From an uncultured virus (IMG/VR IMGVR_UViG_2858553787_000001) (taxonomy: Duplodnaviria > Heunggongvirae > Uroviricota > Caudoviricetes): DNA of 64,000 bases. Position numbers and translations under genes: made by a program. The notes beneath the pieces were generated by a model. It saw only the letters and a list, made by a program, of their open reading frames with translations, made no database searches and was not told where the DNA came from. The stretch lies in the IMG/VR virus record IMGVR_UViG_2858553787_000001; one strand, given 5' to 3'. Of this stretch, positions 28,628 to 61,880 are shown one piece after another (the first letter of the stretch is position 1; every line of letters begins with the position of its first letter).

Positions 28628-29527
28628 TCACTTCATGCACTCAAGCTGTTTCATCAGGATATTGTAGGGGATGCTGCCATCCTCGGTCTTACCGTCCATG
28701 TCAAGGACAGGTCCCGGATTAGCGGACGGCTCTGCCGGAGGGGTAGGCTCTGCGGACGGTTTCGGGTCAGCAGGTGGCTCCTTCGGCTCAGTGTGTTTCT
28801 GGCCCACATCTTCCGGTTTCACACCCAGACGGTTCAGGACGATTAGATCCATCTGACGGCTGGAGAAAAGGTGCCCTGCCGTATCCTTCTGGAACGGCTT
28901 CTTTTCTCCGCCCTCGCCCGGTTCACTGTCGGGGTCTTCTTCCGGATCCTCCGGGTCTGCCGGGTCACTGTCCGGCTCGTCCTCTTTCTTTGCAAAGAGG
29001 ATCTCGTCTGCAAAGCCCAGCTCCACCGCCTTCTTCGCATTCATCCATGTCTCATTGCTCATGAGGTTGGCAATACGGGCATGGCTGAGACCGCTCTTTG
29101 CAGCATAGGCATTGATGATGCTCTCCTTGACTTCGTTCAGCACCTCGATGGCTTTCTCCATATCCTTGGTGTTGCCCATCGCAACGGTGCTGGGGTCGTG
29201 GATCATCAGCATGGCAACAGGACTCATCTGGACGGTATCACCGGCCATTGCCACAACGGATGCCGCCGAAGCTGCAATCGCATCGATCTTGACCGTAATG
29301 CTACCTTTGTAGTCCTTAAGCATGGTATAGATCTCAGCAGCGGCGAACACATTGCCGCCCGGAGAGTTGATCCAGACGGTCACATCCCCCTCACCGGATT
29401 CCAGCTCATCCCGGAACATCTGCGGCGTAATTTCATCGCCCCAGAAAGATTCCTCGTCGATGGGCCCTTCCAGCCGGAGGATTCTGGTGTCATCACTGTT
29501 TTTGATCCAGTTCCAGAATTTCTTCAT
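28628..29527 (-). CDS. ClpP-like prohead protease
   Basis: INSPGG, AASAAS, MIHDP, ETW..A..A...GFAD. Confidence 0.93.
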   Translation of the reverse strand: MKKFWNWIKNSDDTRILRLEGPIDEESFWGDEITPQMFRDELESGEGDVTVWINSPGGNVFAAAEIYTMLKDYKGSITVKIDAIAASAASVVAMAGDTVQMSPVAMLMIHDPSTVAMGNTKDMEKAIEVLNEVKESIINAYAAKSGLSHARIANLMSNETWMNAKKAVELGFADEILFAKKEDEPDSDPADPEDPEEDPDSEPGEGGEKKPFQKDTAGHLFSSRQMDLIVLNRLGVKPEDVGQKHTEPKEPPADPKPSAEPTPPAEPSANPGPVLDMDGKTEDGSIPYNILMKQLECMK

Positions 29528-30930
29528 CGGGTTCTCCTTCCTGTTTTTCGTGGCTTACTCTCACTCAGCCGGTTATCGCTGTCAGGTTCTTCTTCCGGGT
29601 CTTCCTCCTCCGGCTGTGTCTGTTTGGGCTGATTCTGCTGGACTGCGGCCGCTTTGTTCTGCTGCGCCACACCTGCATCTCTCAGCTTCACATAGCCGCC
29701 GTTCAGATAGTAGTCGTCACCGCCCTCCTCTGCCGGGATCAGGTCCATGTTTTCGAGCCGATGCACATCATTCGGAGAGAGGAAGCCGTTGCTGATGCCG
29801 GTCGCATAACCGTTCATCCGGCTCTGGTAATCCCCTCGGAGCAGACCGTCCACATTGAATTTCGGGAAGTAGGTATCCTGCTCCTCCTCCAGCAGCAGGT
29901 CCTTGATGATGCCCTGCTCGATGCGGACAAGCCACGGGGTCAGGGAATGCATCACGAAGTTCAGCGACTGGTATTCGATGTTGGAAAAAGTAGCTCTCGA
30001 CAGGTCAGCCACCAGATGCGGAGGCACACGGAAAATGCGGCAGATCTCCGTCACGGAAAACTGCTTCGTCTCCAAAAACTGGCTGTCCTCTGGCGGCAGA
30101 GAGATTGGTTTGTAGGACATCCCCTCTTCCAGAACTGCCACACGATGCGCATTGGAAGCACCGCCATAAGCCGCTTCCCAGCTATCCCGAATACGGTTCG
30201 GGTCTTTCACAACGCCGGGATGTTCCAGCACACCGCTGGGCTGTGCGCCGTTTTTGAAGAAGGACGAGCCGTACTTATCCACCGCAATGGAAGTACCGAG
30301 GCTGTTCTTCATCATGGCGATTGGCGAGAAGCCGATCAGACCATTAAAGCCCAGACCCGGTACATGGAAGATCTCATCCCGGCGAAAGTAGAGGTCTTTG
30401 TTCTGCTCACCCGGAACTTCATCTGTGTAAGCGTGATAGATATAGTAAAGTTCTCCGCTCTCGTCACGGTCCACTTCGACATTTTCCGGCATCAGCGGAT
30501 ACAGACCCAGCACCGTATTCTTGCCATCCCGGACGATCTGCGCATAAGCGTTTCCCCAGAGAAGCAGGTGGGTCATCATCGTTTCCCAGAAGACAAAGGA
30601 TGTCATTTCCGGGTTGGGCTGCCGATACAAAATCTTGTACAGCGGATGATCTCGCGCCTTCTCCTTATTGCCGTTTTTGTCTGTCACCCGGTACAGATGC
30701 AGCGGAAGTGCCGCAATGGACTCTGCCAGCAGACGGACACAGGCGTACACGGTCGGAATTTGCATGGCGGCTTTTTCATCCACCTGCTCCCCGGCATTGG
30801 AACGGCCAAACACAAAGGTCTGCCCGGAATCGCGGACATTATCCGTGATCTGCGGCAGACCCTCTTTCGGCTGTTCTGTTTTGGGAGAATCTCTCGGATT
30901 CTCAAATCCCATCCATTCCCAGAATCCCAT
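29524..30930 (-). CDS. Portal protein (HK97 family)
   Basis: VYACV, PNP.MT, GNAY, G.SP, FF.NG..P.G, F.VPP. Confidence 0.95.
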   Translation of the reverse strand: MGFWEWMGFENPRDSPKTEQPKEGLPQITDNVRDSGQTFVFGRSNAGEQVDEKAAMQIPTVYACVRLLAESIAALPLHLYRVTDKNGNKEKARDHPLYKILYRQPNPEMTSFVFWETMMTHLLLWGNAYAQIVRDGKNTVLGLYPLMPENVEVDRDESGELYYIYHAYTDEVPGEQNKDLYFRRDEIFHVPGLGFNGLIGFSPIAMMKNSLGTSIAVDKYGSSFFKNGAQPSGVLEHPGVVKDPNRIRDSWEAAYGGASNAHRVAVLEEGMSYKPISLPPEDSQFLETKQFSVTEICRIFRVPPHLVADLSRATFSNIEYQSLNFVMHSLTPWLVRIEQGIIKDLLLEEEQDTYFPKFNVDGLLRGDYQSRMNGYATGISNGFLSPNDVHRLENMDLIPAEEGGDDYYLNGGYVKLRDAGVAQQNKAAAVQQNQPKQTQPEEEDPEEEPDSDNRLSESKPRKTGRRTR

Positions 30931-32795: not shown

Positions 32796-33236
32796 TGTTA
32801 CACCGCCTCTCTTTCCAGATTGCATCCCTGTTCGTCTTTCTCAGGAAAATTTAGTGTTGCAAAATCACCGAAGAACTTTCTCGCTGCTTTGTCATAAGCC
32901 ACCGCAGCTTCCTCAGCTGTGGCATACGCCCCAAGATAATGTCTTCTACCATGCTCACAGATGCGGGCATGATATTTTTCAGTGCGTTTATCCTTGTAAA
33001 TCCCTTTGTAGCCAGTTGTGTTTCTGTCTGACAGCCTATAATTCCAGTGATTCTGCACATTGGTAGCCACTCGCAGATTACAACGGCGGTTGTCAAACGG
33101 ATTGCCGTTGATATGATCCACTACAACTTCGTTTCCCACATTGAGCAGCAAATGAGATACCATATCTTTTTTTCTATTGGTAGTTACATATCCCCGCTCA
33201 TCAACCGTGCAGATTTTATCTTGGAAGAACGTCAAA

Positions 33237-33923
33237 GTCAGTACCACCAGCTCTGCTGGTGGTTTGGGTTTGCCCTTCCAGGGCGCATTGCATTTCCGCC
33301 TGAAGGCGGTCTAACAAACCATTCCTTTAGTTACTGGTGGCCGCTTAAAAGCGGCTCTTTTTTACTTTTCTGAGTCCCCTTCTAAGCGATCTCTTTCGTA
33401 TTGTTCTTGTATATATTGTTTTATTGTTTCTTCATTAACGTTACCTACCGTTTCGCAATAGTATCCTCTTGCCCAAAAGTGACGATTATTTCTATCTCTA
33501 TATTCTGGATGTCTGTCGAATATCATTAATGCACTCTTTCCTTTGATTCGACCTATTGTTTTTGATACATTTAACTTAGGCGGAATTGATACATACATAT
33601 GTACATGTTCTGGAAGGGTCGCTGCTTTTAATATTGTTACTCCTTCCATTTTACATACTTTTCCTAATATCTCTCCTACATCTTTTCGTAACTTTCCAAA
33701 CATCACTTTCCTTCTATATTTTGGAATAAATACAATATGGTACGTGCAATTATATCTACTATGTGCTAAACTTTGATTATCCATGGATACCTCCGTTGTT
33801 TTTTATGTGGTTTGCTAGACCCACATTCATTGTACAACGGAGGTTTTTAATTTGATACTACATTTATCGCCCCTTGCGTCCACGAGTCTCCCCAGCTCTG
33901 CTGGGGGTTTGAGATTGTTTCAA
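33237..33923 (-). mobile_element. IS200-type element (~687 bp, tnpA only)
   Basis: Low GC; subterminal hairpins sharing CCAGCAGAGCTGG at 33243-33263 and 33890-33906; no target duplication; ends uncertain by 2 bp. Confidence 0.9.
33362..33784 (-). CDS. tnpA: IS200/IS605 Y1 HUH transposase
   Basis: YHIVF.PKYRR, HVH, IKGKS, FWARGYY, YI..Q. Confidence 0.95.
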   Translation of the reverse strand: MDNQSLAHSRYNCTYHIVFIPKYRRKVMFGKLRKDVGEILGKVCKMEGVTILKAATLPEHVHMYVSIPPKLNVSKTIGRIKGKSALMIFDRHPEYRDRNNRHFWARGYYCETVGNVNEETIKQYIQEQYERDRLEGDSEK

Positions 33924-45714: not shown

Positions 45715-46484
45715 GCGGAAGCCTCCTCTCCGAGCATCTGCTCATTTGCTTTCCGGTAAAAATCTCTGGATACTTCAAATCCGTAACTGTTGCGCCCAAG
45801 TTCTCTTGCTGCTCTCAGCGTGGAGCCGCTGCCGGCGCAGGGGTCAATGACCACATCGCCCTCATCTGTAAAGGTCTCGATCAGTCGTTTCAGCACAGAG
45901 ATCGGTTTCTGGGAGGGATGGATCTTCGGATATTCCTTGCCATCCCGCTTCCAGCCAAACCAGTTGAAGATCATGTGGGGCTTTCCATCCTCACCGAGAT
46001 TACGGAACTTCGGGAGCTTTCCCCGGTACAGTACCAGAGCGTACTCCGTTGCACCCACGATCTTCATGTTGGCTTTTAAGACCTGCGGACTGTAGTCCTT
46101 GCAGAACACCAGAGGGATATAATTCTTGAAGCCGTATTTCTCTGCTTCGGTGAGCACCTTCGGGATCTGCTGGAACGCACAGAACACGATCATGCACGGC
46201 GCATCCTTCTCGCCCGTGCCGGGTTCTTTCTTCAGCAGTCGGTTGCAGAAATGGAAATACTCTGCAATGTTGAAGGTGAAGTCGGTATTGAATGCCGCTT
46301 TCCTTGCCTTGCTGCTCTCCCCGTTTTTGTTGTCGCCATCCACATACCAGTCCGGCCGGCTGGCGTAGAAATCCGTACCGATGTTGTACGGAATGTCTGC
46401 GATTACCAGCTGCGCCTTGGGGATGTTGTAGGACTTGAAGTTCTGGAAGTTGTCGTGGATGAGGACGCATTTCACATTACTCAT
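45711..46484 (-). CDS. N4C/N6A DNA methyltransferase (beta class)
   Basis: DIPY, HPSQKP, VIDPCAGSGST. Confidence 0.9.
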   Translation of the reverse strand: MSNVKCVLIHDNFQNFKSYNIPKAQLVIADIPYNIGTDFYASRPDWYVDGDNKNGESSKARKAAFNTDFTFNIAEYFHFCNRLLKKEPGTGEKDAPCMIVFCAFQQIPKVLTEAEKYGFKNYIPLVFCKDYSPQVLKANMKIVGATEYALVLYRGKLPKFRNLGEDGKPHMIFNWFGWKRDGKEYPKIHPSQKPISVLKRLIETFTDEGDVVIDPCAGSGSTLRAARELGRNSYGFEVSRDFYRKANEQMLGEEASA

Positions 46485-47101
46485 TGGCGACCTCCCCAGA
46501 AAAACAAAATGTGCCACAAACCGCAAAGTCTGCAAAGCGCATACATTTTTCCGTAACCTGTTTTCTTATCCACTCTGGAGCATCGGCCACATCGTTATAC
46601 CGACCATAATCTCCAAACATACACCGCATACCAACATTTCGAGCTTGTACCGCTTCCTCAAAAGTCAGGTAATATCCAAGATGGATATCATGCTGACTTG
46701 CTTTGATTCTTGCACGGTATTTATTTCTTGGAGGATAAAAGCTCACGCCCGATACACCTGAAGTATTGTTTCTCTGCAAGGGCTGATTGCACTGGTTCTG
46801 CTGGTGAGTACATACACGAAGATTGCACTTCCGATTATCCAGCGTGTCCAGACTGATATGATCGACCTCGTAACCCGCAGGTACATTTGGAAAAATATAC
46901 CGGTGCAGGTAGGTTCCGTTATGGGTAGTGATATAAAGTCGATGGCTATCATCTTCATTTAGATTACGATACCAGTTCGTGTCTCTAATTTTCTCGAAGT
47001 CTTCTGCATCAAACAGAAACCGAGTTCCATCATGAAGCCAGCCATATCCCGTTTTTCCATCATCGGAAAATGTGTATTTCACATTACTCATTGGCAACCT
47101 C
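46469..47101. repeat. 26-bp direct repeat (1 mismatch) flanking HNH-AP2 gene
   Basis: ATTTCACATTACTCATTGGCrACCTC at 46469-94 and 47076-101. Confidence 0.9.
46477..47091 (-). CDS. HNH-AP2 homing endonuclease
   Basis: LHR, VDHI..D.LDNRK.NLR, N.SG..GV, LG.Y...EEA. Confidence 0.88.
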   Translation of the reverse strand: MSNVKYTFSDDGKTGYGWLHDGTRFLFDAEDFEKIRDTNWYRNLNEDDSHRLYITTHNGTYLHRYIFPNVPAGYEVDHISLDTLDNRKCNLRVCTHQQNQCNQPLQRNNTSGVSGVSFYPPRNKYRARIKASQHDIHLGYYLTFEEAVQARNVGMRCMFGDYGRYNDVADAPEWIRKQVTEKCMRFADFAVCGTFCFSGEVANE

Positions 47102-48364
47102 ACTTTCCGGCTCAAAGGTTGCCACCTCATCGAACTTCAACTTCTGACCATCTCGGATGACATACACATCATCGTAGTGACCTTCCTTAAATTGGACGTA
47201 CCGCTTAACCGCCACATCTACAAACTTCGGTTCCAGCTCCACACCATAGCAGATTCGATCAATCTGTTCACAGGCAATCAGGGTAGATGCACTGCCGAGG
47301 AAGCCATCCAGCACAATGCCATTGGTCATGGTGGACTGCTTGATCAGATAGGCAATCAATGGAACCGGCTTACTAGAGGGATGACCGAAACCGTCCTCTT
47401 TTGAATTCTTGATGCCATCAAATTCAAACACATTGGTCTGCTTCTGGTCGCCGTACCAGCGGTGACGGCCATCCTTGCGCCATCCAAAGATGATCGGTTC
47501 GGAGTTGAACTTCCAGTCAGTACGCATCAGCGGCGCACGTGGCTTCTTCCAAATCAGTCCGGCTCCCACCTTGAAGCCCGCATCCTCGAAAGCATCGTAA
47601 AACACACGGGCTTTCATCGTGGCGTAGAATTCATAGATGGAAGCGTCCAGTGCCATCGCATTTTTGAAGTTGGCGTAGACCTTCATCAAAAACTCATAAG
47701 CGGACTTGTCATCCAGATCATCATTCTTGATACTGCCAGAAGCATTCTCCAACTTCACGAAGTAAGGTGCATCCGTACAAACCAGATTGACCTTGGTATC
47801 GCCCAGCAGATTCTTGTATGCTTCCGGGTCAGTGGAATCTCCGCAGATAACCGTGTGCTTACCAAGATGCCAGATATCCCCGGTCTTGGAAAAGCACGGC
47901 TGCTTCAGCTCGGATTCCACATCGAAGTCATCTTCCTTGACCTCTTTGCTGTGTACCTTGTTGAACAGCGTCTCGATCTCAGGCGGATCAAAACCTGTCT
48001 TGCCAAGGTCAAAGTTGGAATCTTCGATGTCTTTGAGCAGGTCAGCCAGCAGGGAATCATCCCACGCACCCGTGATCTTATTGAGCGCAATGTTCAGGGC
48101 TTTCTCCCTGGTCTTGTCGATGTCCACCACCGCGCAAGGCACTTCGGTGTAGCCCAGCTCCATCGCTACGGTCAATCTCTGGTGGCCGCCGATGATCGTC
48201 ATGTCGGCATTGACTACCAAAGGATCTGCGAAACCGAACTCCGTAATGGAGTTCTTGATCTTCTCGTACTCTTTATCCCCCGGCTTCAGCTTCTTCCGGG
48301 GATTGTATGCGGCCGGCTTGAGTACGGACACCGGCAGCATCTTCAGTTTAGCAGTCGCTTTCAT
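47084..48364 (-). CDS. ParB-like domain + N6A/N4C DNA methyltransferase
   Basis: YNPR, IGGHQR, DAPY, HP..KPV, LDGFLGSAST. Confidence 0.9.
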   Translation of the reverse strand: MKATAKLKMLPVSVLKPAAYNPRKKLKPGDKEYEKIKNSITEFGFADPLVVNADMTIIGGHQRLTVAMELGYTEVPCAVVDIDKTREKALNIALNKITGAWDDSLLADLLKDIEDSNFDLGKTGFDPPEIETLFNKVHSKEVKEDDFDVESELKQPCFSKTGDIWHLGKHTVICGDSTDPEAYKNLLGDTKVNLVCTDAPYFVKLENASGSIKNDDLDDKSAYEFLMKVYANFKNAMALDASIYEFYATMKARVFYDAFEDAGFKVGAGLIWKKPRAPLMRTDWKFNSEPIIFGWRKDGRHRWYGDQKQTNVFEFDGIKNSKEDGFGHPSSKPVPLIAYLIKQSTMTNGIVLDGFLGSASTLIACEQIDRICYGVELEPKFVDVAVKRYVQFKEGHYDDVYVIRDGQKLKFDEVATFEPESEVANE

Positions 48365-55352: not shown

Positions 55353-55645
55353 TGGAACAGAAACACAACTACAACAACTTTTTCTATATACCCTATATGC
55401 GCTTATATGCGTATTACACAGGCTTCTATTTTCTCTTTTTACCAAAACACTCTATATAGAAAAAGTTGTTCCTGTTCCATATAGTTGATTACTTTTGACC
55501 TAAGCTACCGCCCTCCCACCCTCTGCTTTTCTTCCGTTTTTTCCTTAATTGCCCTGTTCCGTTGTTCCACTGTTTTTCTTTTCCTGTTTATCTGCCTTGT
55601 TCTATTGTTCCTATTTATTTTCTTATTTTTCCTGTTCCGTTGTTT
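55353..55645. repeat. Candidate replication origin: TGTTCC repeats and 18-bp inverted repeat
   Basis: AACAACTTTTTCTATATA 55373-90 and its complement 55453-70; several TGTTCC; AT-rich, downstream of primase. Confidence 0.55.
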
Positions 55646-57974
55646 TCTTGTAGATTCTCTGTTTGCCGTAAATGCCAAAGCGAATGCTCTCCTTTGTCCT
55701 CGTCCAGCCGTAAACCTGTGTCATAAGGGCAGCGATAGCATAGGAATCAGCAGGCTTCATATCAGACAGAGAACGGCCAAAGCATTCACACCAGATTTCG
55801 GCATTGCAGACCACACTCCGCATTCTCACACCTTTTTCTACCGTCGGGCTGTCTTTCTCGCTGATATAATTTCTTCTCTCATAGAGATCCATCATATCCC
55901 AGCGTTCCGGCAGCAGCATATTCAGATACTGTTCGACCATGCCCTGGCGCTCATCCATTTCCATTGCACTCTTCTGGGCCTCCTGTGCGCTCTCCAATAA
56001 ATCACCTTCCAAGTACAGCTTCTCGCCGTCCTCGTAGTATTTCTTGGTTTCCGCCCAGATCTGGTCCTTTTCTTCTTTCGTAAAATGCCACTTACGCTTC
56101 TGCTCCGTCTGCTTCAGCTTAACAACCCAGAAGCGGCGGTTACCCGTAATATCGCGCAGGTATCCTCTCTCGCCGTTGACACTTGCAATCACCACACACT
56201 GCCGTGGGTGAGATTCGACAGTACGGCCATAAGAAGGGCGATACTTATCATCGGTGGTCGTAATGAATGCTTTCACCTTTTCAATGTCCGCTTTCTTCAT
56301 GCCGGCCAGCTCCGGGATCTCCACGATCCAGAATCCCTGCAGTTTCTCCGCGGCAGCCTTATCGTTCATATCCGTCAGGCTCAGGTTGTCGGCGTAGTAT
56401 TCCTCTCCGCACAGATCCTTCAAGAACGTACTTTTTCCAATTCCCTGCTCACCATCCAGTACCGGAACAGAGTCAAACTTCGTGCCGGGATGGTAGATAC
56501 GGGTGACTGCTGCCACCAGCATCTTCCGGGTCACCGCACGGACGTATGGGGTATCGTCCGCATCAAAATAATCAATCAACAGGGTATCCACCCGTTCCTT
56601 ACCGTCCCAAGACGGCAGGCCGTCCAAATAATCTCTAACCGGGTGAAAGCTGCGGTCGTCCGCCACCTTCAAAAAACTCACATCGTGATTACGGGTAGAG
56701 AATGAAGTATAGCGGGTATCAAGAATGGCTTTCAGCTGTGCGGTATCTGCATCGCGCCAGAACTTGTTATCGTCCGGGCGGTTCCACGGCACTTTTCCTG
56801 TGATCTGGATGCGGTTTGCCATCTCATTGAACGCAAAATTCTGGAAGTCCGGGTCATTATTAAGGATCAGCACCTCGTTAAAGACACTGTTCTCCAGCAC
56901 CTTGCTTCTGGGCATATACCTTAACTTCTCTCTCCAGTCCTCACCGTCATCAAAGTCCATGTCGGCTTCCGCTTTCTTCTCCTCTGCCGCCAGCACCCTG
57001 ACCTTATCCAGACTCATCGCAAAATCGCACATTGCCTGGAAGCTCTTTTTCTCATCTTCGTCCCCAAACTTGTGTACACGCACAAGGTCAAAGGAATTCA
57101 AGGAACGACCGCAGGCAGGGTCGGATGCATGGAAGGAATGTGCGAACTTCTCCTCAAAAATCTGCACACCGGCAGAGGAATCCGCCGGGATATAGGAATA
57201 GCGGCCGGGAATGTTGGCAGACGGCTCATAGACATTGGAAAGGAAGGTGTCGATGGCTTCACGAATCGGATAAGCACGGCAGAACAGTCCAACCACGCCG
57301 CCTTTCGCCTCCGGGTCTTCCATCTTCTTGCCGCTGCTTTCCTTTACCTCGCTCTCTCTACTGCTGGTCGGAAGTAAAGAACAGTCCTGCCAGTTAGGGT
57401 GAAAAGAGAGAAAAACATCCGGGTCAAGCCATTCGCCCTCCACCTTTTCGCAGATATACTCTCCATTCGATGGCGTAGTCGGCCAGTACATCAGCTGATG
57501 CGGACGGTACGAGCATTCATCAAACTGGTCGATGCCCCATTCGGCTGCGAAGTACCGGGCAATGGCCTGGTATTCATCCGGTGTCACATCACGGGTCAGC
57601 GGGATGATGATGCGGAAACGAGGTGCTTCCGGGGTGTGTCCGTGGGTGGTATAGAGGACAGAGGTATACGAGGCCAGCATCTCATAGCTTTCGATGAAGC
57701 CTTTTTCACCCTTATCCACATCCATCGTCAGCATAGAACGGCTGACCACGTTTTCTCTCTTTCTTCTGCCGCCCTTCAGCTGACCGCCGACAAAGCCGCC
57801 CTTATCCTTGGCAGCTTCACGCTCGGCGCGCTTCATCTTCTGGTATTCCTCGACTGTCTCCGTGGTTCTTATCGTATTTTCCAGCCGGCCGCACAGCTCC
57901 CCAAAGGTGATCGTCTTATTCGACCATTTCTTCGCCATGCAGCTGTTGCCGTAGGCAATATTCAAGTCTCTCAT
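55623..57974 (-). CDS. Primase-helicase (VirE/VapE family)
   Basis: N-terminal primpol-like (D.D, TH.H..PR.R); G.QG.GKST, EL, R..YGR, D.TGNRRF. Confidence 0.92.
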   Translation of the reverse strand: MRDLNIAYGNSCMAKKWSNKTITFGELCGRLENTIRTTETVEEYQKMKRAEREAAKDKGGFVGGQLKGGRRKRENVVSRSMLTMDVDKGEKGFIESYEMLASYTSVLYTTHGHTPEAPRFRIIIPLTRDVTPDEYQAIARYFAAEWGIDQFDECSYRPHQLMYWPTTPSNGEYICEKVEGEWLDPDVFLSFHPNWQDCSLLPTSSRESEVKESSGKKMEDPEAKGGVVGLFCRAYPIREAIDTFLSNVYEPSANIPGRYSYIPADSSAGVQIFEEKFAHSFHASDPACGRSLNSFDLVRVHKFGDEDEKKSFQAMCDFAMSLDKVRVLAAEEKKAEADMDFDDGEDWREKLRYMPRSKVLENSVFNEVLILNNDPDFQNFAFNEMANRIQITGKVPWNRPDDNKFWRDADTAQLKAILDTRYTSFSTRNHDVSFLKVADDRSFHPVRDYLDGLPSWDGKERVDTLLIDYFDADDTPYVRAVTRKMLVAAVTRIYHPGTKFDSVPVLDGEQGIGKSTFLKDLCGEEYYADNLSLTDMNDKAAAEKLQGFWIVEIPELAGMKKADIEKVKAFITTTDDKYRPSYGRTVESHPRQCVVIASVNGERGYLRDITGNRRFWVVKLKQTEQKRKWHFTKEEKDQIWAETKKYYEDGEKLYLEGDLLESAQEAQKSAMEMDERQGMVEQYLNMLLPERWDMMDLYERRNYISEKDSPTVEKGVRMRSVVCNAEIWCECFGRSLSDMKPADSYAIAALMTQVYGWTRTKESIRFGIYGKQRIYKKTTEQEK

Positions 57975-58004: not shown

Positions 58005-58763
58005 TTACTCACGCTCCATAACCGGCAAAATCCCGTCTGCCTTCAGAAGTTCATAAATAAACAGCCGGCCTTTCTGCGTCCAGAGCGTATGCATGGCTGT
58101 ATGGTTATCCTCGTCATAGAGGTAAGTCCTGCTCTGGGTGTAGCCCTGCTCGGCATACTTCTGATACAAAAACCATGTCCTGCCCTGCTTGAACTGGATC
58201 TTCTTTTCCTTCAAAATCTTATTGAGCTTTTTCGCTGACAACCCGAAATCCTTTGCGATCTGGGTAATGGTAACGAGATCCGGGCAGGCAAGGACGATAT
58301 CGTAGTAAGAAACTTTCGGCTGCATCTCGGCGATCTGCTGTGCCTTGACTGCATTCTCCAGTTCCAGACGTTTTTTCTCCTCGCGCTCCTTCTTCAGCTC
58401 CATCAACGCGCTGATCAAAAGATCCGGGTTATTCAGCACTTCATCCACAGCATACAGACCATGCTTGCGGATGGACGGCAATACGTCATGCGTGACCCAA
58501 CGCTTGAATTCCTTTGCCTGCGGTTTACGGCTCGTGAGGATCAGAGAATAAAGCCCGGCTTCATTCACCACTACCATCTGCTGATCTCCGCCAAGGGTCT
58601 TAATAGTAGTAAGACCCTTTTCGTCATCGTCCAGGCGTTCTACTGTTCTGGTGGGATTTCCGAGTTCCAGCACACGGCACACATCCGCTGCAACAAACCA
58701 CACAGCTTCGTCCTTGTAATCCGTTCTGACCTGCTGACCCTGATAATCAAAAACTTCAAACAT
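58005..58763 (-). CDS. Phage antirepressor (BRO-N + ANT/KilAC)
   Basis: WFVA.DVC, NE.GLY.L...SRKP.A..F..WVT..VLPSIR; IAK..G.SA..LN, WTQKG. Confidence 0.92.
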   Translation of the reverse strand: MFEVFDYQGQQVRTDYKDEAVWFVAADVCRVLELGNPTRTVERLDDDEKGLTTIKTLGGDQQMVVVNEAGLYSLILTSRKPQAKEFKRWVTHDVLPSIRKHGLYAVDEVLNNPDLLISALMELKKEREEKKRLELENAVKAQQIAEMQPKVSYYDIVLACPDLVTITQIAKDFGLSAKKLNKILKEKKIQFKQGRTWFLYQKYAEQGYTQSRTYLYDEDNHTAMHTLWTQKGRLFIYELLKADGILPVMERE

Positions 58764-58887
58764 AATAAAATAACCTCCGAAAATCTATAGAGTAAGGGAG
58801 CGTTCCCCTCTACCACGCCAGATTTTCGGAGGTCTTTTATAACCTGTTTCTCTTAAATTTTTTTCTTGTTCCTTTTTCTCTCGTCCC

Positions 58888-61755
58888 TTAATCCTTCATA
58901 TAAAAATCCGAGGTAAAGCCATCTGCTCGCAAAACCAGCCCCGGTGTCCAAGGCGGGGTTCGTCCCATCTGCTCACAAATTGCTTCCAGGCTGACCCGTG
59001 GGTCTGCTTCGATGATCAGCTCGTCATGCACATGCATCACAATGGAACAACAACGGAGTGTGCGCATGGCATAGCAGAGGATGTCCCGGCTGATTGCCTG
59101 GATCACGTTCTCGGTCAGCTTGCCGCCAAAGCTCTCCAGCCTCTCCCACTTCTTTGTACCGCCAACACCTTCATAGGTAATGGAAGTTCCGCCGAACTGG
59201 TTTTCTCCCAGTCTCGGTTTCACATATGCCAGCTTTCTGCCAGAGGGAAGATAAATAAAGAGAAAGCCAGACTGGTAAGTGAACCGCAGGCACTTCACCT
59301 GCTGTGGCTCTTTGGTCTTGATGACATGGATGGCCGCCCTCTCGATCTCACCCCAGAGTCGGACGATATTCGGATTTGCTGACCGCCAGGAATCCACCAG
59401 CGGTTTCAGTTCTTCCTCTTTCATGCCAAGCTCCAGCGCCCCCATCGCTTTCAATGCACCAACGGAGCCGCCATAGCCGCAGTTGTGGACGAGATGTCCC
59501 GATACGGTAAAACGGTGATGTCGTCCGGCATTTCGTATATCATAAAGTCGAGCCGTGCGCTTATAATTCGCCAGTTCTTCCTTTTCTCGAATACCGCAGT
59601 CTGTGCATCCTGAATGATTTCGTCCCGGTTCATCCCACTGCTCAGTTTCCGGACAACAACATTCTGGCAGTACGGCCAATACTTCTGCTCGAATCTGCCG
59701 AGTACCGTTGTCCTTCGATTTGCAGAATTCTCCTGTCTTGTTACCAGACGAATATTCCCAGGGGCATAGTTGCCGTTGTTGTCTATCCGGTCCAGTTCCA
59801 TCTCCCGTTTTAGATGTCCGTACTGCCTGATCAGATAGAGTCCGGCTTCTATCACACTGGGAAACTCGAACTTTATCCCTCTCGCACCGTAATTGGCATA
59901 CCCTGCATCGTTTGGATTCTCGCATCTCTGCTTGGCTGCTGCCAGTCTCTTTTCCAGCCAGCTCGGAATGGGACGTTTCTGAGTACAGTTCTGGCACCCT
60001 TTCGATTTTCCACTGGTCAGATTTGTCCTGAGCTGCCACTGTATCGCACCGCAACCCATGCACTGTGTCAGAACATAGCAGTGATTCTGCTTTTCGTTCC
60101 ATCGCTTCTCCGGACTGATAATTTTTACCCAGCCGTAATGCTCTCCCACCATCTCCGGTTTGTACGAGATGCGCGCCGCAGGTGGCGGCGAATCCAAGCT
60201 GTACCGGCTCCGATTTCCCTTCAACCCAGACGAAATGGTCTGGAGTTGCTGTGAGTCCTTCGTAGGTGATGACTTCCCTTTCTCCTCTGTATATGACACC
60301 ATCATGGGACACCCACTCCTCTCCGTCCCAGACTTTATCTTCCTGTTTTACTTTTTCTATAGGCACCAGACCTCTATCCGTCAGCACCAAACTGCCCTCT
60401 GCAATACAGCTTAACTCGGCCTGTTTTCCTTTTTGTCGCAGCTCACCATTCTCACCATGCTTTACGACCGGCACTCCGAACATACGGGAAGCCGTTGCAC
60501 AGTAAATGTCGCCACCGGAAGCAAAGACCTCCATGCGCCATTCTTCCCCTGCGATCCAGGAAAGCACTCTGGCTTCGATGGCGGAAAAGTCTGCCACATA
60601 GAACCTCGCGCCCTCTCTGGGGATGAATGCGGTACGGATGAGCTGGGACAATGTGTCCGGCACATCCTCATACAGCATCTTTACTGCTTCCAGATTTCCC
60701 TGCCGTACCAGTGCCCTCGCCTCTGCCAGATCCGGCAGATGGTTCTGCGGAAGGTTTTGCATCTGAATGAGGCGGCCTGAAAACCTGCCGGTGCGGTTGG
60801 CTCCGTAAAACATGAACATCCCTCTTGCCCGGCCGTCCGAGCAGGCAGCATTCTTCATGGCCTGATACTTTTTCACACTGCTCTTTGCAAGCTGCTGACG
60901 CAGGCGCAACACTTCCCGAATCTCCTCCGGCACTTCTTCCATAAGAGCTTTGACCTGCTTCTTTCCAAGACTGTCCGTCTCCACCCCGTTATCAGCAAGC
61001 CACCCTGACAGCTGGGATACCGAGTTCGGATTTTCCAGTGCAGTCAGCTCCTGCATCTTTGTCTTCAGTTCTTCCTTGATCTCGGTGTCCATTGCAATGG
61101 CATTCTGTACCAGCACACCGTCAATCCTTACGCCCCGGTCGTTGATTTCCTGATCGATAGCGTATTCCTCCCATACGGAATCCGGCACAGGGAAACGCTC
61201 CAGCTTCTGCTGGATCTGCATCTCGACCTCAACATCCCGCACATTATACTTTTTGAAGACATCCCACTTATCCGGTGCATCGGACGGAAGATTTCTTGTC
61301 CGGCCGCCGTTGGTCTTGGTTGGCGCACAGGGTACGCAGAAATAACGGATCAGGTCTTTGCCTTCTCCCATCTTCTGCTTATCCAGCCCCAGCACAGCAC
61401 CGACTCCGGCCAGTGACAACGGCAGACCCATATATGCCGACCAGACCATCGTACACTTCCATTCCTCTGGGTTCAGATATTCCCCGGTCGGATAGCCCAG
61501 ATACCGGGACAGGCAGACACGCTCGAATGAGGCATTGTGTGCCAGCTTCGTTACGCTCTCATCCTCCAGCGCAGCCAGTATCTCCTTTGGCAGCTTCTCT
61601 CCGCAGGCCAGATCCACGACCCTGACCTCACCGCCGTCACAGGAATAGCCAAACAGCAGGATCTCAAAATCCGGGGATTCTGTGTATTTATAGACACCGC
61701 ACTTTGCAAGGTCGGCAGAGGAATACGTTTCTATATCAATGTGTAATTCCTTCAT
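58888..61755 (-). CDS. Family A DNA polymerase precursor containing an intein (646 aa after splicing)
   Basis: DIET, AHNA.F, RTGR, Q.QNLP, DFSAIEAR, K..EL.CGYGG, HVHDE. Confidence 0.95.
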   Translation of the reverse strand: MKELHIDIETYSSADLAKCGVYKYTESPDFEILLFGYSCDGGEVRVVDLACGEKLPKEILAALEDESVTKLAHNASFERVCLSRYLGYPTGEYLNPEEWKCTMVWSAYMGLPLSLAGVGAVLGLDKQKMGEGKDLIRYFCVPCAPTKTNGGRTRNLPSDAPDKWDVFKKYNVRDVEVEMQIQQKLERFPVPDSVWEEYAIDQEINDRGVRIDGVLVQNAIAMDTEIKEELKTKMQELTALENPNSVSQLSGWLADNGVETDSLGKKQVKALMEEVPEEIREVLRLRQQLAKSSVKKYQAMKNAACSDGRARGMFMFYGANRTGRFSGRLIQMQNLPQNHLPDLAEARALVRQGNLEAVKMLYEDVPDTLSQLIRTAFIPREGARFYVADFSAIEARVLSWIAGEEWRMEVFASGGDIYCATASRMFGVPVVKHGENGELRQKGKQAELSCIAEGSLVLTDRGLVPIEKVKQEDKVWDGEEWVSHDGVIYRGEREVITYEGLTATPDHFVWVEGKSEPVQLGFAATCGAHLVQTGDGGRALRLGKNYQSGEAMERKAESLLCSDTVHGLRCDTVAAQDKSDQWKIERVPELYSETSHSELAGKETGSSQAEMRESKRCRVCQLRCERDKVRVSQCDRSRTLSDQAVRTSKTGDGTGPDRQQRQLCPWEYSSGNKTGEFCKSKDNGTRQIRAEVLAVLPECCCPETEQWDEPGRNHSGCTDCGIREKEELANYKRTARLYDIRNAGRHHRFTVSGHLVHNCGYGGSVGALKAMGALELGMKEEELKPLVDSWRSANPNIVRLWGEIERAAIHVIKTKEPQQVKCLRFTYQSGFLFIYLPSGRKLAYVKPRLGENQFGGTSITYEGVGGTKKWERLESFGGKLTENVIQAISRDILCYAMRTLRCCSIVMHVHDELIIEADPRVSLEAICEQMGRTPPWTPGLVLRADGFTSDFYMKD
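59451..60305 (-). CDS. HNH-like homing endonuclease overprinted in +1 frame within the intein
   Basis: CMGC/CQNC, RCENP..Y.NYGARGI, LDRIDNNGNYAPGNIRLVT..EN..NRR; GAGGAG SD 10 nt upstream. Confidence 0.82.
   Translation of the reverse strand: MMVSYTEEKGKSSPTKDSQQLQTISSGLKGNRSRYSLDSPPPAARISYKPEMVGEHYGWVKIISPEKRWNEKQNHCYVLTQCMGCGAIQWQLRTNLTSGKSKGCQNCTQKRPIPSWLEKRLAAAKQRCENPNDAGYANYGARGIKFEFPSVIEAGLYLIRQYGHLKREMELDRIDNNGNYAPGNIRLVTRQENSANRRTTVLGRFEQKYWPYCQNVVVRKLSSGMNRDEIIQDAQTAVFEKRKNWRIISARLDFMIYEMPDDITVLPYRDISSTTAAMAAPLVH
59482..60408 (-). mobile_element. Intein, 309 aa (precursor residues 450-758)
   Basis: Block A CIAEGSLVLT, block B TPDH, block F LYDI, block G LVHN followed by extein Cys. 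Confidence 0.93.
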
Positions 61756-61880
61756 GGCTACCTCCTTACCCAGTCCGTCTGTGCATCATCCTGCCGATGC
61801 TCTTTCGCTGGTCTGTATACTGTTTTTTGGGTGTCTGCTTGATCTGCTTCTTTTTCTTCTGTTCCTTCTCCTGCTTCTTT

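Follow-up and report, generated by a model that had tools for sequence, protein, structure and literature searches.

The stretch of DNA considered here (the window, to which all position numbers refer) is the 64,000-nucleotide (nt) IMG/VR record IMGVR_UViG_2858553787_000001, and the genes in question lie on its minus strand. According to the list of open reading frames (ORFs), 58888..61755 (-) encodes a family A DNA polymerase (Pol A) precursor of 955 amino acids (aa). This frame runs uninterrupted through a 309-aa insert at 59482..60408 (-) that carries the end motifs of an intein. The same DNA also holds, in the +1 frame relative to the polymerase, a nested ORF of 284 aa (59451..60305 (-)) for an HNH-like (His-Me-finger-like) putative homing endonuclease, the stop of which lies 31 nt past the last intein base. 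The whole is very probably a composite selfish element in a prophage Pol A gene: a class-1-type intein together with a same-strand, +1-frame HNH-like nuclease gene that would be translated separately.

The insert was located by comparison with known polymerases. Matches to the PHROG polymerase families cover residues 1-451 and 759-955 and flank it exactly, and residues 450-758 were therefore taken to be the insert. The N-extein (60409..61755 (-), aa 1-449) ends ...RQKGKQAELS and the C-extein (58888..59481 (-)), matched by phrog_10285 over residues 759-955, begins CGYGGSVGALKAMG. Insert-free alleles reading KIAELA|LGYGG (locus L034) or KIAELA|CGYGG (phi1207.3, L035) lack exactly the 309 aa. The insert, flanked by KQAELS and CGYGG, is thus precisely delimited and lies in the conserved R..GK..EL..GYGG motif (polymerase motif B). 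As this motif is conserved, a 309-aa insert that remained unspliced would very likely inactivate the polymerase.

The initial annotation had described the polymerase frame as open through a 309-aa intein with intact splicing motifs, and the sequence bears this out. The insert has the residues found at the ends of class-1 inteins, namely C1, T55-P-D-H58, H308-N309 and C+1, and its C-terminal end reads ...FTVSGHLVHN. C1, T55, D57, H58, H308 and N309 are invariant in 11 aligned sequences, as is Cys+1. These features point to a class-1-type intein that would be spliced out of the precursor. Its N-terminal splicing region (60124..60408 (-), about aa 1-95 of the intein) shows constraint in the polymerase frame (frame 0), and its C-terminal splicing region (59482..59559 (-)) ends ...ARLYDIRNAGRHHRFTVSGHLVHN. 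Between the two lies a frame-0 linker (59560..60123 (-), about aa 96-283) rich in E, S, R, G, C, Q, K and D, the amino-acid sequence of which is unconstrained and which is kept free of stops. This middle part had been called motif-free, and Pfam indeed finds no endonuclease domain in the polymerase frame, its sole match being DNA_pol_A, confined to residues 228-448.

When residues 1-126 of an AlphaFold model of the intein were compared with 48,161 PDB chains, nine chains gave Z of at least 2 and all nine were inteins, with Z only 2.0-2.7; an example is the weak match to Npu DnaE (Z 2.7, root mean square deviation (rmsd) 6.5, 78 aligned residues). A phmmer search of the PDB with the intein gave a weak match (E 0.22) to NEQ068, which we take to be the N half of a split intein. 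No intron match was found with Rfam at E<=1 in 58800-61800, where the single row returned was a chance snoRNA (E 0.17).

All the sequence features attributed to the +1 ORF in the initial annotation are present: the limits 60305-59451, the 284 aa, the two CxxC pairs, RCENP...YANYGARGI and ELDRIDNNGNYAPGNIRLVTRQENSANRR. The CxxC pairs (C82, C85, C104 and C107; 59985..60062 (-)) presumably form a zinc ribbon, and an HNH-like core, RCENP...YANYGARGI...ELDRIDNNGNYAPGNIRLVTRQENSANRR, occupies 59712..59927 (-). In an alignment of 11 members of the nested ORF that includes the window's own (A1), all four Cys are invariant, and the window's ORF is intact and retains all 89 invariant columns. It matches nine PHROG families, eight of them named as nucleases and one of unknown function. 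The best match is phrog_374 'HNH endonuclease' (E 3.9e-23, residues 51-202); phrog_3377 gave E 4e-18. The match to phrog_1035 'endonuclease VII' is weak (E 0.00054), better matches being to other HNH-named families. Relatives of the nested ORF were found in 622 protein clusters at E<=0.001, mostly from short contigs, and a profile search returned 71,976 representative clusters of the nuclease family at the same threshold; at E<=1e-10 the relatives number 7,418.

Both frames are open in relatives of the element. Phage records and IMG/VR supplied 23 loci, and in all of them the polymerase frame has an open run of 895-1019 codons spanning the insert; the open +1 stretch measures 259-298 codons in 22 of these loci (197 codons in L003), and the third frame never exceeds 80. 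A further 30 loci come from bacterial genomes. None of these has the polymerase frame interrupted within the intein, and the +1 frame has at least 259 open codons in 26. The exceptions are L059 (146), L061 (194), L069 (at a contig end) and L070 (with a 155-aa mini-intein). The hosts of these bacterial loci include Oscillospiraceae, Lachnospiraceae, Ruminococcus, Acidaminococcus, Anaerococcus, Peptoniphilus and a Synergistales metagenome-assembled genome. The initial annotation had proposed that homologous inteins at the same site be compared, and over the whole set the polymerase frame is open through the intein in 53/53 loci. Relatives with both frames open are about 58-72% identical. Of 18 distinct full-length inteins, 16 have 309 aa, one 310 and one 305; their alignment is nearly gapless and every insertion or deletion (indel) has a length divisible by 3. 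In a translated search, the nested ORF was located at 63-69% identity in the records of six Streptococcus phages and one Gardnerella phage, each time within the polymerase gene; the records of Javan113, Javan255, PhiSdyV1524 and Gardnerella AB1 annotate the polymerase and leave the nested ORF out. Four loci (L012, L041, L044 and L054) have a shorter polymerase frame of 895, 746, 826 and 658 codons respectively, with stops outside the intein.

Purifying selection changes frame along the intein: the polymerase frame is the constrained one at the splicing ends, and between them it is the +1 frame. Over nt 1-225 of the intein, position 3 of the polymerase frame is the most variable (0.38-0.54 vs 0.10-0.16 at position 2). 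Over nt ~270-850 it is position 1 of the polymerase frame, that is, position 3 of the +1 frame (0.47-0.58), and the last 90 nt have low diversity at all three codon positions. Ratios of nonsynonymous to synonymous divergence (dN/dS) were calculated as pairwise medians for 12 of the 18 sequences (66 pairs). In the polymerase frame they were 0.16 for the N region, 1.49 for the middle and 0.32 for the C region. In the +1 frame the middle gave 0.15, a value resting on 11 pairs only because dS was saturated in the others. Amino-acid identity over the middle averages 0.67 in the +1 frame vs 0.35 in the polymerase frame. The initial annotation had proposed testing for purifying selection on frame 0 towards both ends and on the +1 frame between them, and this is the pattern found.

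The absence of stops from the polymerase frame was assessed by permuting synonymous codons with the nuclease protein and its codon usage held fixed, 5000 times for each sequence. The shuffles predict a mean of 7.4-15.7 polymerase-frame stops over 195-200 codons; none was observed in 18/18 sequences, and the polymerase frame was left open in 0/5000 shuffles for each of them. For the window's intein (represented by row L010, the intein of which is identical) a mean of 10.2 stops was expected over 199 codons and 0 observed, so that the earlier claim of a stop-free middle beyond chance holds. The third frame, which served as a control, behaves as expected, with 12 stops in L010 vs 11.6 expected. 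From the dN/dS values, the identities and the shuffles, the polymerase frame in the intein middle is under selection solely against stops, as is needed if the frame is to be read through and its product then excised.

The nested gene has start signals of its own. Its ATG at 60305 is preceded by a Shine-Dalgarno (SD)-like GGAGAGGAG (60316..60324 (-)) formed from the intein codons G-E-E, with a duplex energy of -8.7 kcal/mol with the anti-SD. The GAGGAG in it ends 10 nt 5' of the ATG, as had been reported together with the position of the stop 31 nt past the junction. In 16/18 sequences the ATG is instead 146 nt into the intein, with an SD-like AGAGAGGT, AAGGAGGT or similar sequence 8-9 nt upstream that is made of R-E-V codons. 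This common ATG has been lost in the window and in L011 through a change that is synonymous in frame 0, and in these two sequences the open +1 frame reaches back to an ATGATG that lies 43 nt 5' of the common start and has GGAGAGGAG as its SD. In L027 both starts are present and the strong SD is found only at the upstream one. Most relatives have +1-frame stops a short way 5' of the common ATG. All 14 sequences scanned contain an ATG whose SD reaches -6.4 to -9.1 kcal/mol, and the choice between the two start positions co-varies with which stretch is open. This compensation between start positions argues for independent initiation, short of proof, and from the ATG and SD patterns alone the window's nuclease would be translated independently from 60305.

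The nested protein looks like a His-Me-finger relative in which the general-base His is replaced by Arg: the sequence D172-R173-I-D (59781..59792 (-)) has Arg where HNH_3 proteins carry the catalytic His. For this reason the protein is called HNH-like and a putative nuclease. The earlier assignment to HNH-like endonucleases is supported by the PHROG matches and qualified by the Arg at the catalytic position. Two free-standing genes in the same prophage, at 46480-47136 (-) and 32801-33310 (-), match Pfam HNH_3 with 38.3 and 27.2 bits and both carry the canonical D-H; by eye, an AP2-like segment follows HNH_3 in each. They read EVDHIS and VVDHIN at profile positions 13-45, where the window's ORF reads ELDRID. 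The equivalence of the Arg and His columns rests on these common HNH_3 profile coordinates; hhalign of A1 with a genuine HNH_3 protein aligned only 17 columns after the D-R/D-H position, with a probability of 3%. HNH_3 was not found at E<=1 in the other 10 A1 members (1/11 overall), and among 30 representatives of the wider family Pfam gave it in 2 only, below threshold. NCBIfam gave no nuclease match, and the ESM Atlas gave leads only (NUMOD4/HNH_3 clusters at a score of 0.82). A structural model of the nuclease, with a mean predicted local distance difference test score (pLDDT) of 63, has a zinc-ribbon-like, beta-rich part with the four Cys, then a helix, YGARGI and a strand-strand-helix unit, and a helical C-terminal part. 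The beta strands at residues 41-100 have pLDDT 79-90 and the strand-strand-helix unit at 169-195 (strands 169-171 and 187-189, helix 190-195) has pLDDT 53-81; residues 1-38 of the product are below 50.

The conserved frames, the frame-specific purifying selection, the avoidance of stops and the presence or absence of the insert at exactly this site are observed features of the locus and its relatives, and a mechanism may be proposed alongside them. A nuclease gene of the free-standing type would sit in the loop that separates the N-terminal from the C-terminal splicing region of the intein. Ribosomes in the polymerase frame would traverse it out of frame, leaving ~190 aa free to drift, barring stops, and the splicing regions would then remove all 309 aa and join the two polymerase parts. 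The nuclease would be made separately from an internal ribosome-binding site, in the window from the ATG at 60305 with GGAGAGGAG as the SD. It would presumably cut intein-less polymerase alleles, and repair would copy the whole element into them, that is, homing. As for the initial annotation's dual-coding mobile element, the dual coding stands, given the two open frames and the selection on each, and the independent start, the splicing and the cleavage keep the status of predictions.

A number of results weigh against this interpretation. The domain evidence for the intein is below threshold: the first 96 aa match Pfam Hint_2 with E 0.0075 (17.1 bits vs a cut-off of 28.4), and TIGR01445 gives E 0.14. 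The AlphaFold model of the 309-aa intein is poor (mean pLDDT 34.6); the linker scores 21-30 in it, and the whole model is too poor to show disorder of the linker by itself. The nuclease fares similarly. Pfam HNH_3 aligns residues 163-194 with profile positions 13-45 at E 0.062 and 13.4 bits vs a cut-off of 24.8, and the R173 column is Arg in 139/139 filled positions among 150 family representatives. A PDB sequence search with the nuclease profile returned one irrelevant match (E 0.26), and Foldseek found nothing in the PDB at E<=0.001 with the nuclease model. A wide VIA-align search with this model gave no clear fold match, the best Z being 4.7 and all values within noise; the top nuclease fold, PacI (3m7k_A), presumably an HNH restriction enzyme, had Z 4.3 with rmsd 3.6 over 74 aligned residues, also in the noise range. 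The SD motifs consist of conserved intein codons and may thus be present for frame-0 reasons. The 38-codon leader from the upstream ATG to Met52 is open in 18/18 sequences, to an extent that is not significant per sequence (P 0.2-1.0). Since the openness of the leader is not significant in any single sequence, the true start of the nuclease could instead be Met52 (60150..60152 (-); ...KPEM|VGEHYGW), an internal ATG found in 17/18 sequences that has no spaced SD (duplex energy -1.1). Finally, the identities of nuclease and extein are loosely linked (r 0.49), which neither proves nor excludes recent horizontal transfer.

Several other explanations of the locus were considered. The nuclease might truly be in frame with the intein and appear in the +1 frame through two compensating indel errors in sequencing or assembly. 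A nuclease in the intein frame of homologues, which the initial annotation had named as the finding that would overturn it, does exist in one protein cluster, P0275 (962 aa, 7 member sequences), which has a same-site intein with an HNH-like core of ~160 aa in the intein frame, and the polymerase::nuclease fusions P0271-P0274 (760-781 aa) are frameshifted at four different points. All 53 related loci nevertheless keep the out-of-frame layout. In 4 runs from 4 studies, the contigs matching 59400-60500 show neither a difference nor a gap (runs X3 and X7 of the four may be the source sample), which also disposes of the compensating indels considered in the initial annotation, and errors would not yield 0 polymerase-frame stops vs 7-16 expected. 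Among the public runs listed as containing this sequence, none is an RNA run. From the open frames in relatives, the indels in multiples of 3 and the identical contigs, compensating sequencing errors are therefore excluded, and the chance of an artefact is negligible. The +1 ORF might otherwise be real and be a decaying, unexpressed remnant, with selection on the polymerase frame only. Decay is indeed seen in relatives, as stops (L003, L059 and L061), as a deletion (Javan422) and as short inteins lacking the nuclease (L070 and L036), but the intact ORF of the window with its 89 invariant columns, the +1 dN/dS of 0.15, the mean identity of 67% vs 35% and the retention of a start codon and SD, with compensating alternatives, make a relic very unlikely. 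Programmed +1 ribosomal frameshifting, which would produce the nuclease fused to the N-extein and the N region of the intein, would be in keeping with the overlap of the frames for ~50 codons ahead of the nuclease core and with the fusion proteins on record. The fusions P0271-P0274, however, switch frame at nuclease residues 66, 83, 100 and 117, ending at the nuclease stop; because the switches fall at four different places they look like sporadic frameshift alleles or sequencing errors with no conserved site. With +1 stops just upstream of the common ATG in most relatives and an ATG with an SD in every sequence scanned, frameshifting is highly improbable.

The possibility that the +1 product does not cut DNA deserves more attention. 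It might be a DNA-binding or otherwise non-canonical protein, for example a nuclease recruiter or a protein of phage DNA metabolism, that hitch-hikes in the intein loop. The invariant R173, the fact that the neighbouring His (profile column 164) is kept in 94/137 only and is Asn in the window, the sub-threshold HNH_3 match together with its absence at E<=1 from the other A1 members, and the two canonical HNH_3-AP2 genes in the same prophage would all fit such a role. Set against these are the strong matches to PHROG families named HNH endonuclease and the retention of the HNH metal-binding acidic and Asn positions (D172 in 137/140 representatives, N184 in 137/137, N193 as N or Q in 133/137, and N196 as N in 124/136 and H in 9). 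The gene also occupies the very place in which inteins carry their homing endonucleases, and its pattern of presence, absence and decay is that of a homing cycle; a non-cutting product is accordingly considered unlikely. The insert might, lastly, be a group I intron with an endonuclease ORF, as the record of Sodalis phage SO-1 has it, where the insert in gp38, with the nested gp39, is noted as a 'type I self-splicing intron'. An intron would not need a stop-free host frame, whereas the frame here is kept open; no Rfam intron was found in the region searched, the intein end motifs are invariant and the structural matches to the first 126 residues of the model are inteins only. An intron is scarcely credible, and an intein with a separately translated nuclease gene is the reading retained.

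The variants found among the relatives include the forms that a homing element would pass through. Premature stops occur in the nested ORF, with the polymerase frame open, in L003 (PhiSdyV1524, 197 codons), L059 (146) and L061 (194). In Javan422 (L005) an in-frame deletion has left a 168-aa intein and the first 102 residues of the nested ORF. Short inteins at the same site have no nuclease in L036 (140 aa) and L070 (155 aa), and near-identical exteins (95-96%) have no intein at all in L074 and L075. L076 (3-2333) has two inteins. A mini-intein occupies the motif B site; the other intein, of 330 aa, is inserted at GGKLAEN|C...LVHN|CVQAIARD and contains a +1 ORF of 245 codons that belongs to the same YGGRGI/DRIDN family. 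In L073 this second site (GGKLAEN|CVQAIARD) is taken by a mini-intein. Intein-less, full, stop-bearing, deleted and short forms are the states expected of a homing element. In the pig-gut run X7, which also contains the window's sequence, two contigs match only 59441-59479, the 39 nt after the intein, with 3 differences, and continue past 59479/59480 into ...QKGKIAEFAL; this is an intein-less allele of a relative in the same sample.

Both layouts, with the nuclease in the +1 frame and in the intein frame, exist in this intein family. In P0275 the N-terminal strands and the C-terminal helical part of the nuclease are missing or shifted. The DNA behind P0275 was not found in viral_contigs, the scan of which gave intein-less and other relatives. 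It is possible, and is put forward tentatively, that one Pol A intein and nuclease lineage preserves every stage of a 'splicing first' acquisition of an endonuclease, with an Arg-for-His family as the nuclease. The stages would be the nuclease-less short inteins (L036, L070 and L076) and the deletion derivative Javan422, the overprinted +1 form (the window and ~50 relatives), a +2 form at a site 4 codons away, the +1 copy at the second site of L076 and the in-frame P0275. As part of the same tentative scheme, the in-frame nuclease core of P0275 may have arisen via two indels.

The +2 form is found in Jerseyvirus and Dhillonvirus phages (Salmonella LP31 and VT223, Escherichia AV129 and Sodalis SO-1; L006-L009), which have a homologous intein and a homologous nuclease ORF in Pol A. 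In these the intein is 4 codons upstream (GKA|CELGLGYGG) and the nuclease, of 248-253 codons, is in frame +2 and not +1. The polymerase frame is again stop-free vs 4.0-5.2 stops expected (P 0.0002-0.0034). A Jerseyvirus record names an 'intein-containing DNA polymerase precursor', and in APSE-1 (NC_000935, L037) the gene for P46 'HNH endonuclease' (29132-29554) lies within that for the polymerase P45 (28827-31808), in the +1 frame judging by the coordinates alone. The accessible text of the Jerseyvirus and Edwardsiella phage papers does not describe the nested ORF.

The initial annotation had hoped that the architecture might be new, which it is not. Same-strand, out-of-frame endonucleases in actinophage inteins are reported by Gosselin et al. 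(2025, bioRxiv 10.1101/2025.01.02.630785), who, in the accessible text of the preprint, propose invasion of the intein by a free-standing endonuclease gene and cite anti-sense cases from 1998. The resemblance to the present element is close: an endonuclease ORF on the same strand in the endonuclease region of the intein, in another frame, with the intein frame open, and with the same proposed origin. The features that define this kind are found here: the endonuclease ORF lies between the splicing blocks in a different frame, the intein frame stays open, and purifying selection acts on the frame of the endonuclease. In what is accessible of the preprint the endonucleases are endonuclease VII-like (IPR004211) and the hosts are those of actinophages, whereas here a zinc ribbon is combined with a 'YGxRGI...DRIDN' HNH-like core in the +1 frame at Pol A motif B, in prophages of gut Bacillota and relatives. 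Phillips et al. (bioRxiv 10.64898/2026.09.14.751524) describe a dnaX intein with the endonuclease in an overlapping frame; going by the accessible text, this case shares with ours the overlapping frame, purifying selection and a supposed secondary invasion of a mini-intein. It differs in the extein, and the Synechocystis dnaX endonuclease is an anti-sense LAGLIDADG enzyme (according to 10.1101/2025.01.02.630785) whereas here the sense strand is used.

Two further systems bear a partial likeness, as far as the accessible parts of the papers go. The ShiLan domain of a phage DNA methylase (Arsenault et al., Genes 2025, PMC11855218) likewise has an out-of-frame HNH ORF within a stop-free host frame; that insert, unlike ours, has no splicing domains and is thought to be retained in the protein, whereas intein end motifs flank the ORF here. 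In the fractured genes of Dassa et al. (2009, PMC2677866) a free-standing endonuclease gene also lies between N and C splicing parts, but the host gene there is broken into two ORFs and here it is one continuous ORF of 955 aa. The literature search found no paper on this Pol A case; the supplementary tables of the preprints, which were outside the search, may list related cases. Because same-strand, out-of-frame intein endonucleases appear in a preprint and nested ORFs are annotated in APSE-1 and SO-1, the layout is not new in kind, out-of-frame intein endonucleases having been described in preprints of 2025-26. The parts most worth following up are the Arg-for-His nuclease family and the co-existence of +1, +2 and in-frame forms.

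The element is of interest for several reasons. The nuclease gene is missed in annotation because gene callers report the polymerase alone, and Pfam and NCBIfam do not cover the nuclease. About 0.6 kb is read in two frames, one of which is selected only against stops, and this is a clean natural example of overprinting. The layout supports the view that homing endonucleases enter inteins as free-standing genes. The Arg-for-His family is an abundant one; DNA cleavage by it, should it occur, would involve a chemistry other than that of the textbook HNH enzymes.

On the 3' side of the polymerase gene lie a 252-aa ORF (58005-58763 (-)), of the anti-repressor type by eye, and a 783-aa ORF (55623-57974 (-)), by eye of the primase type.

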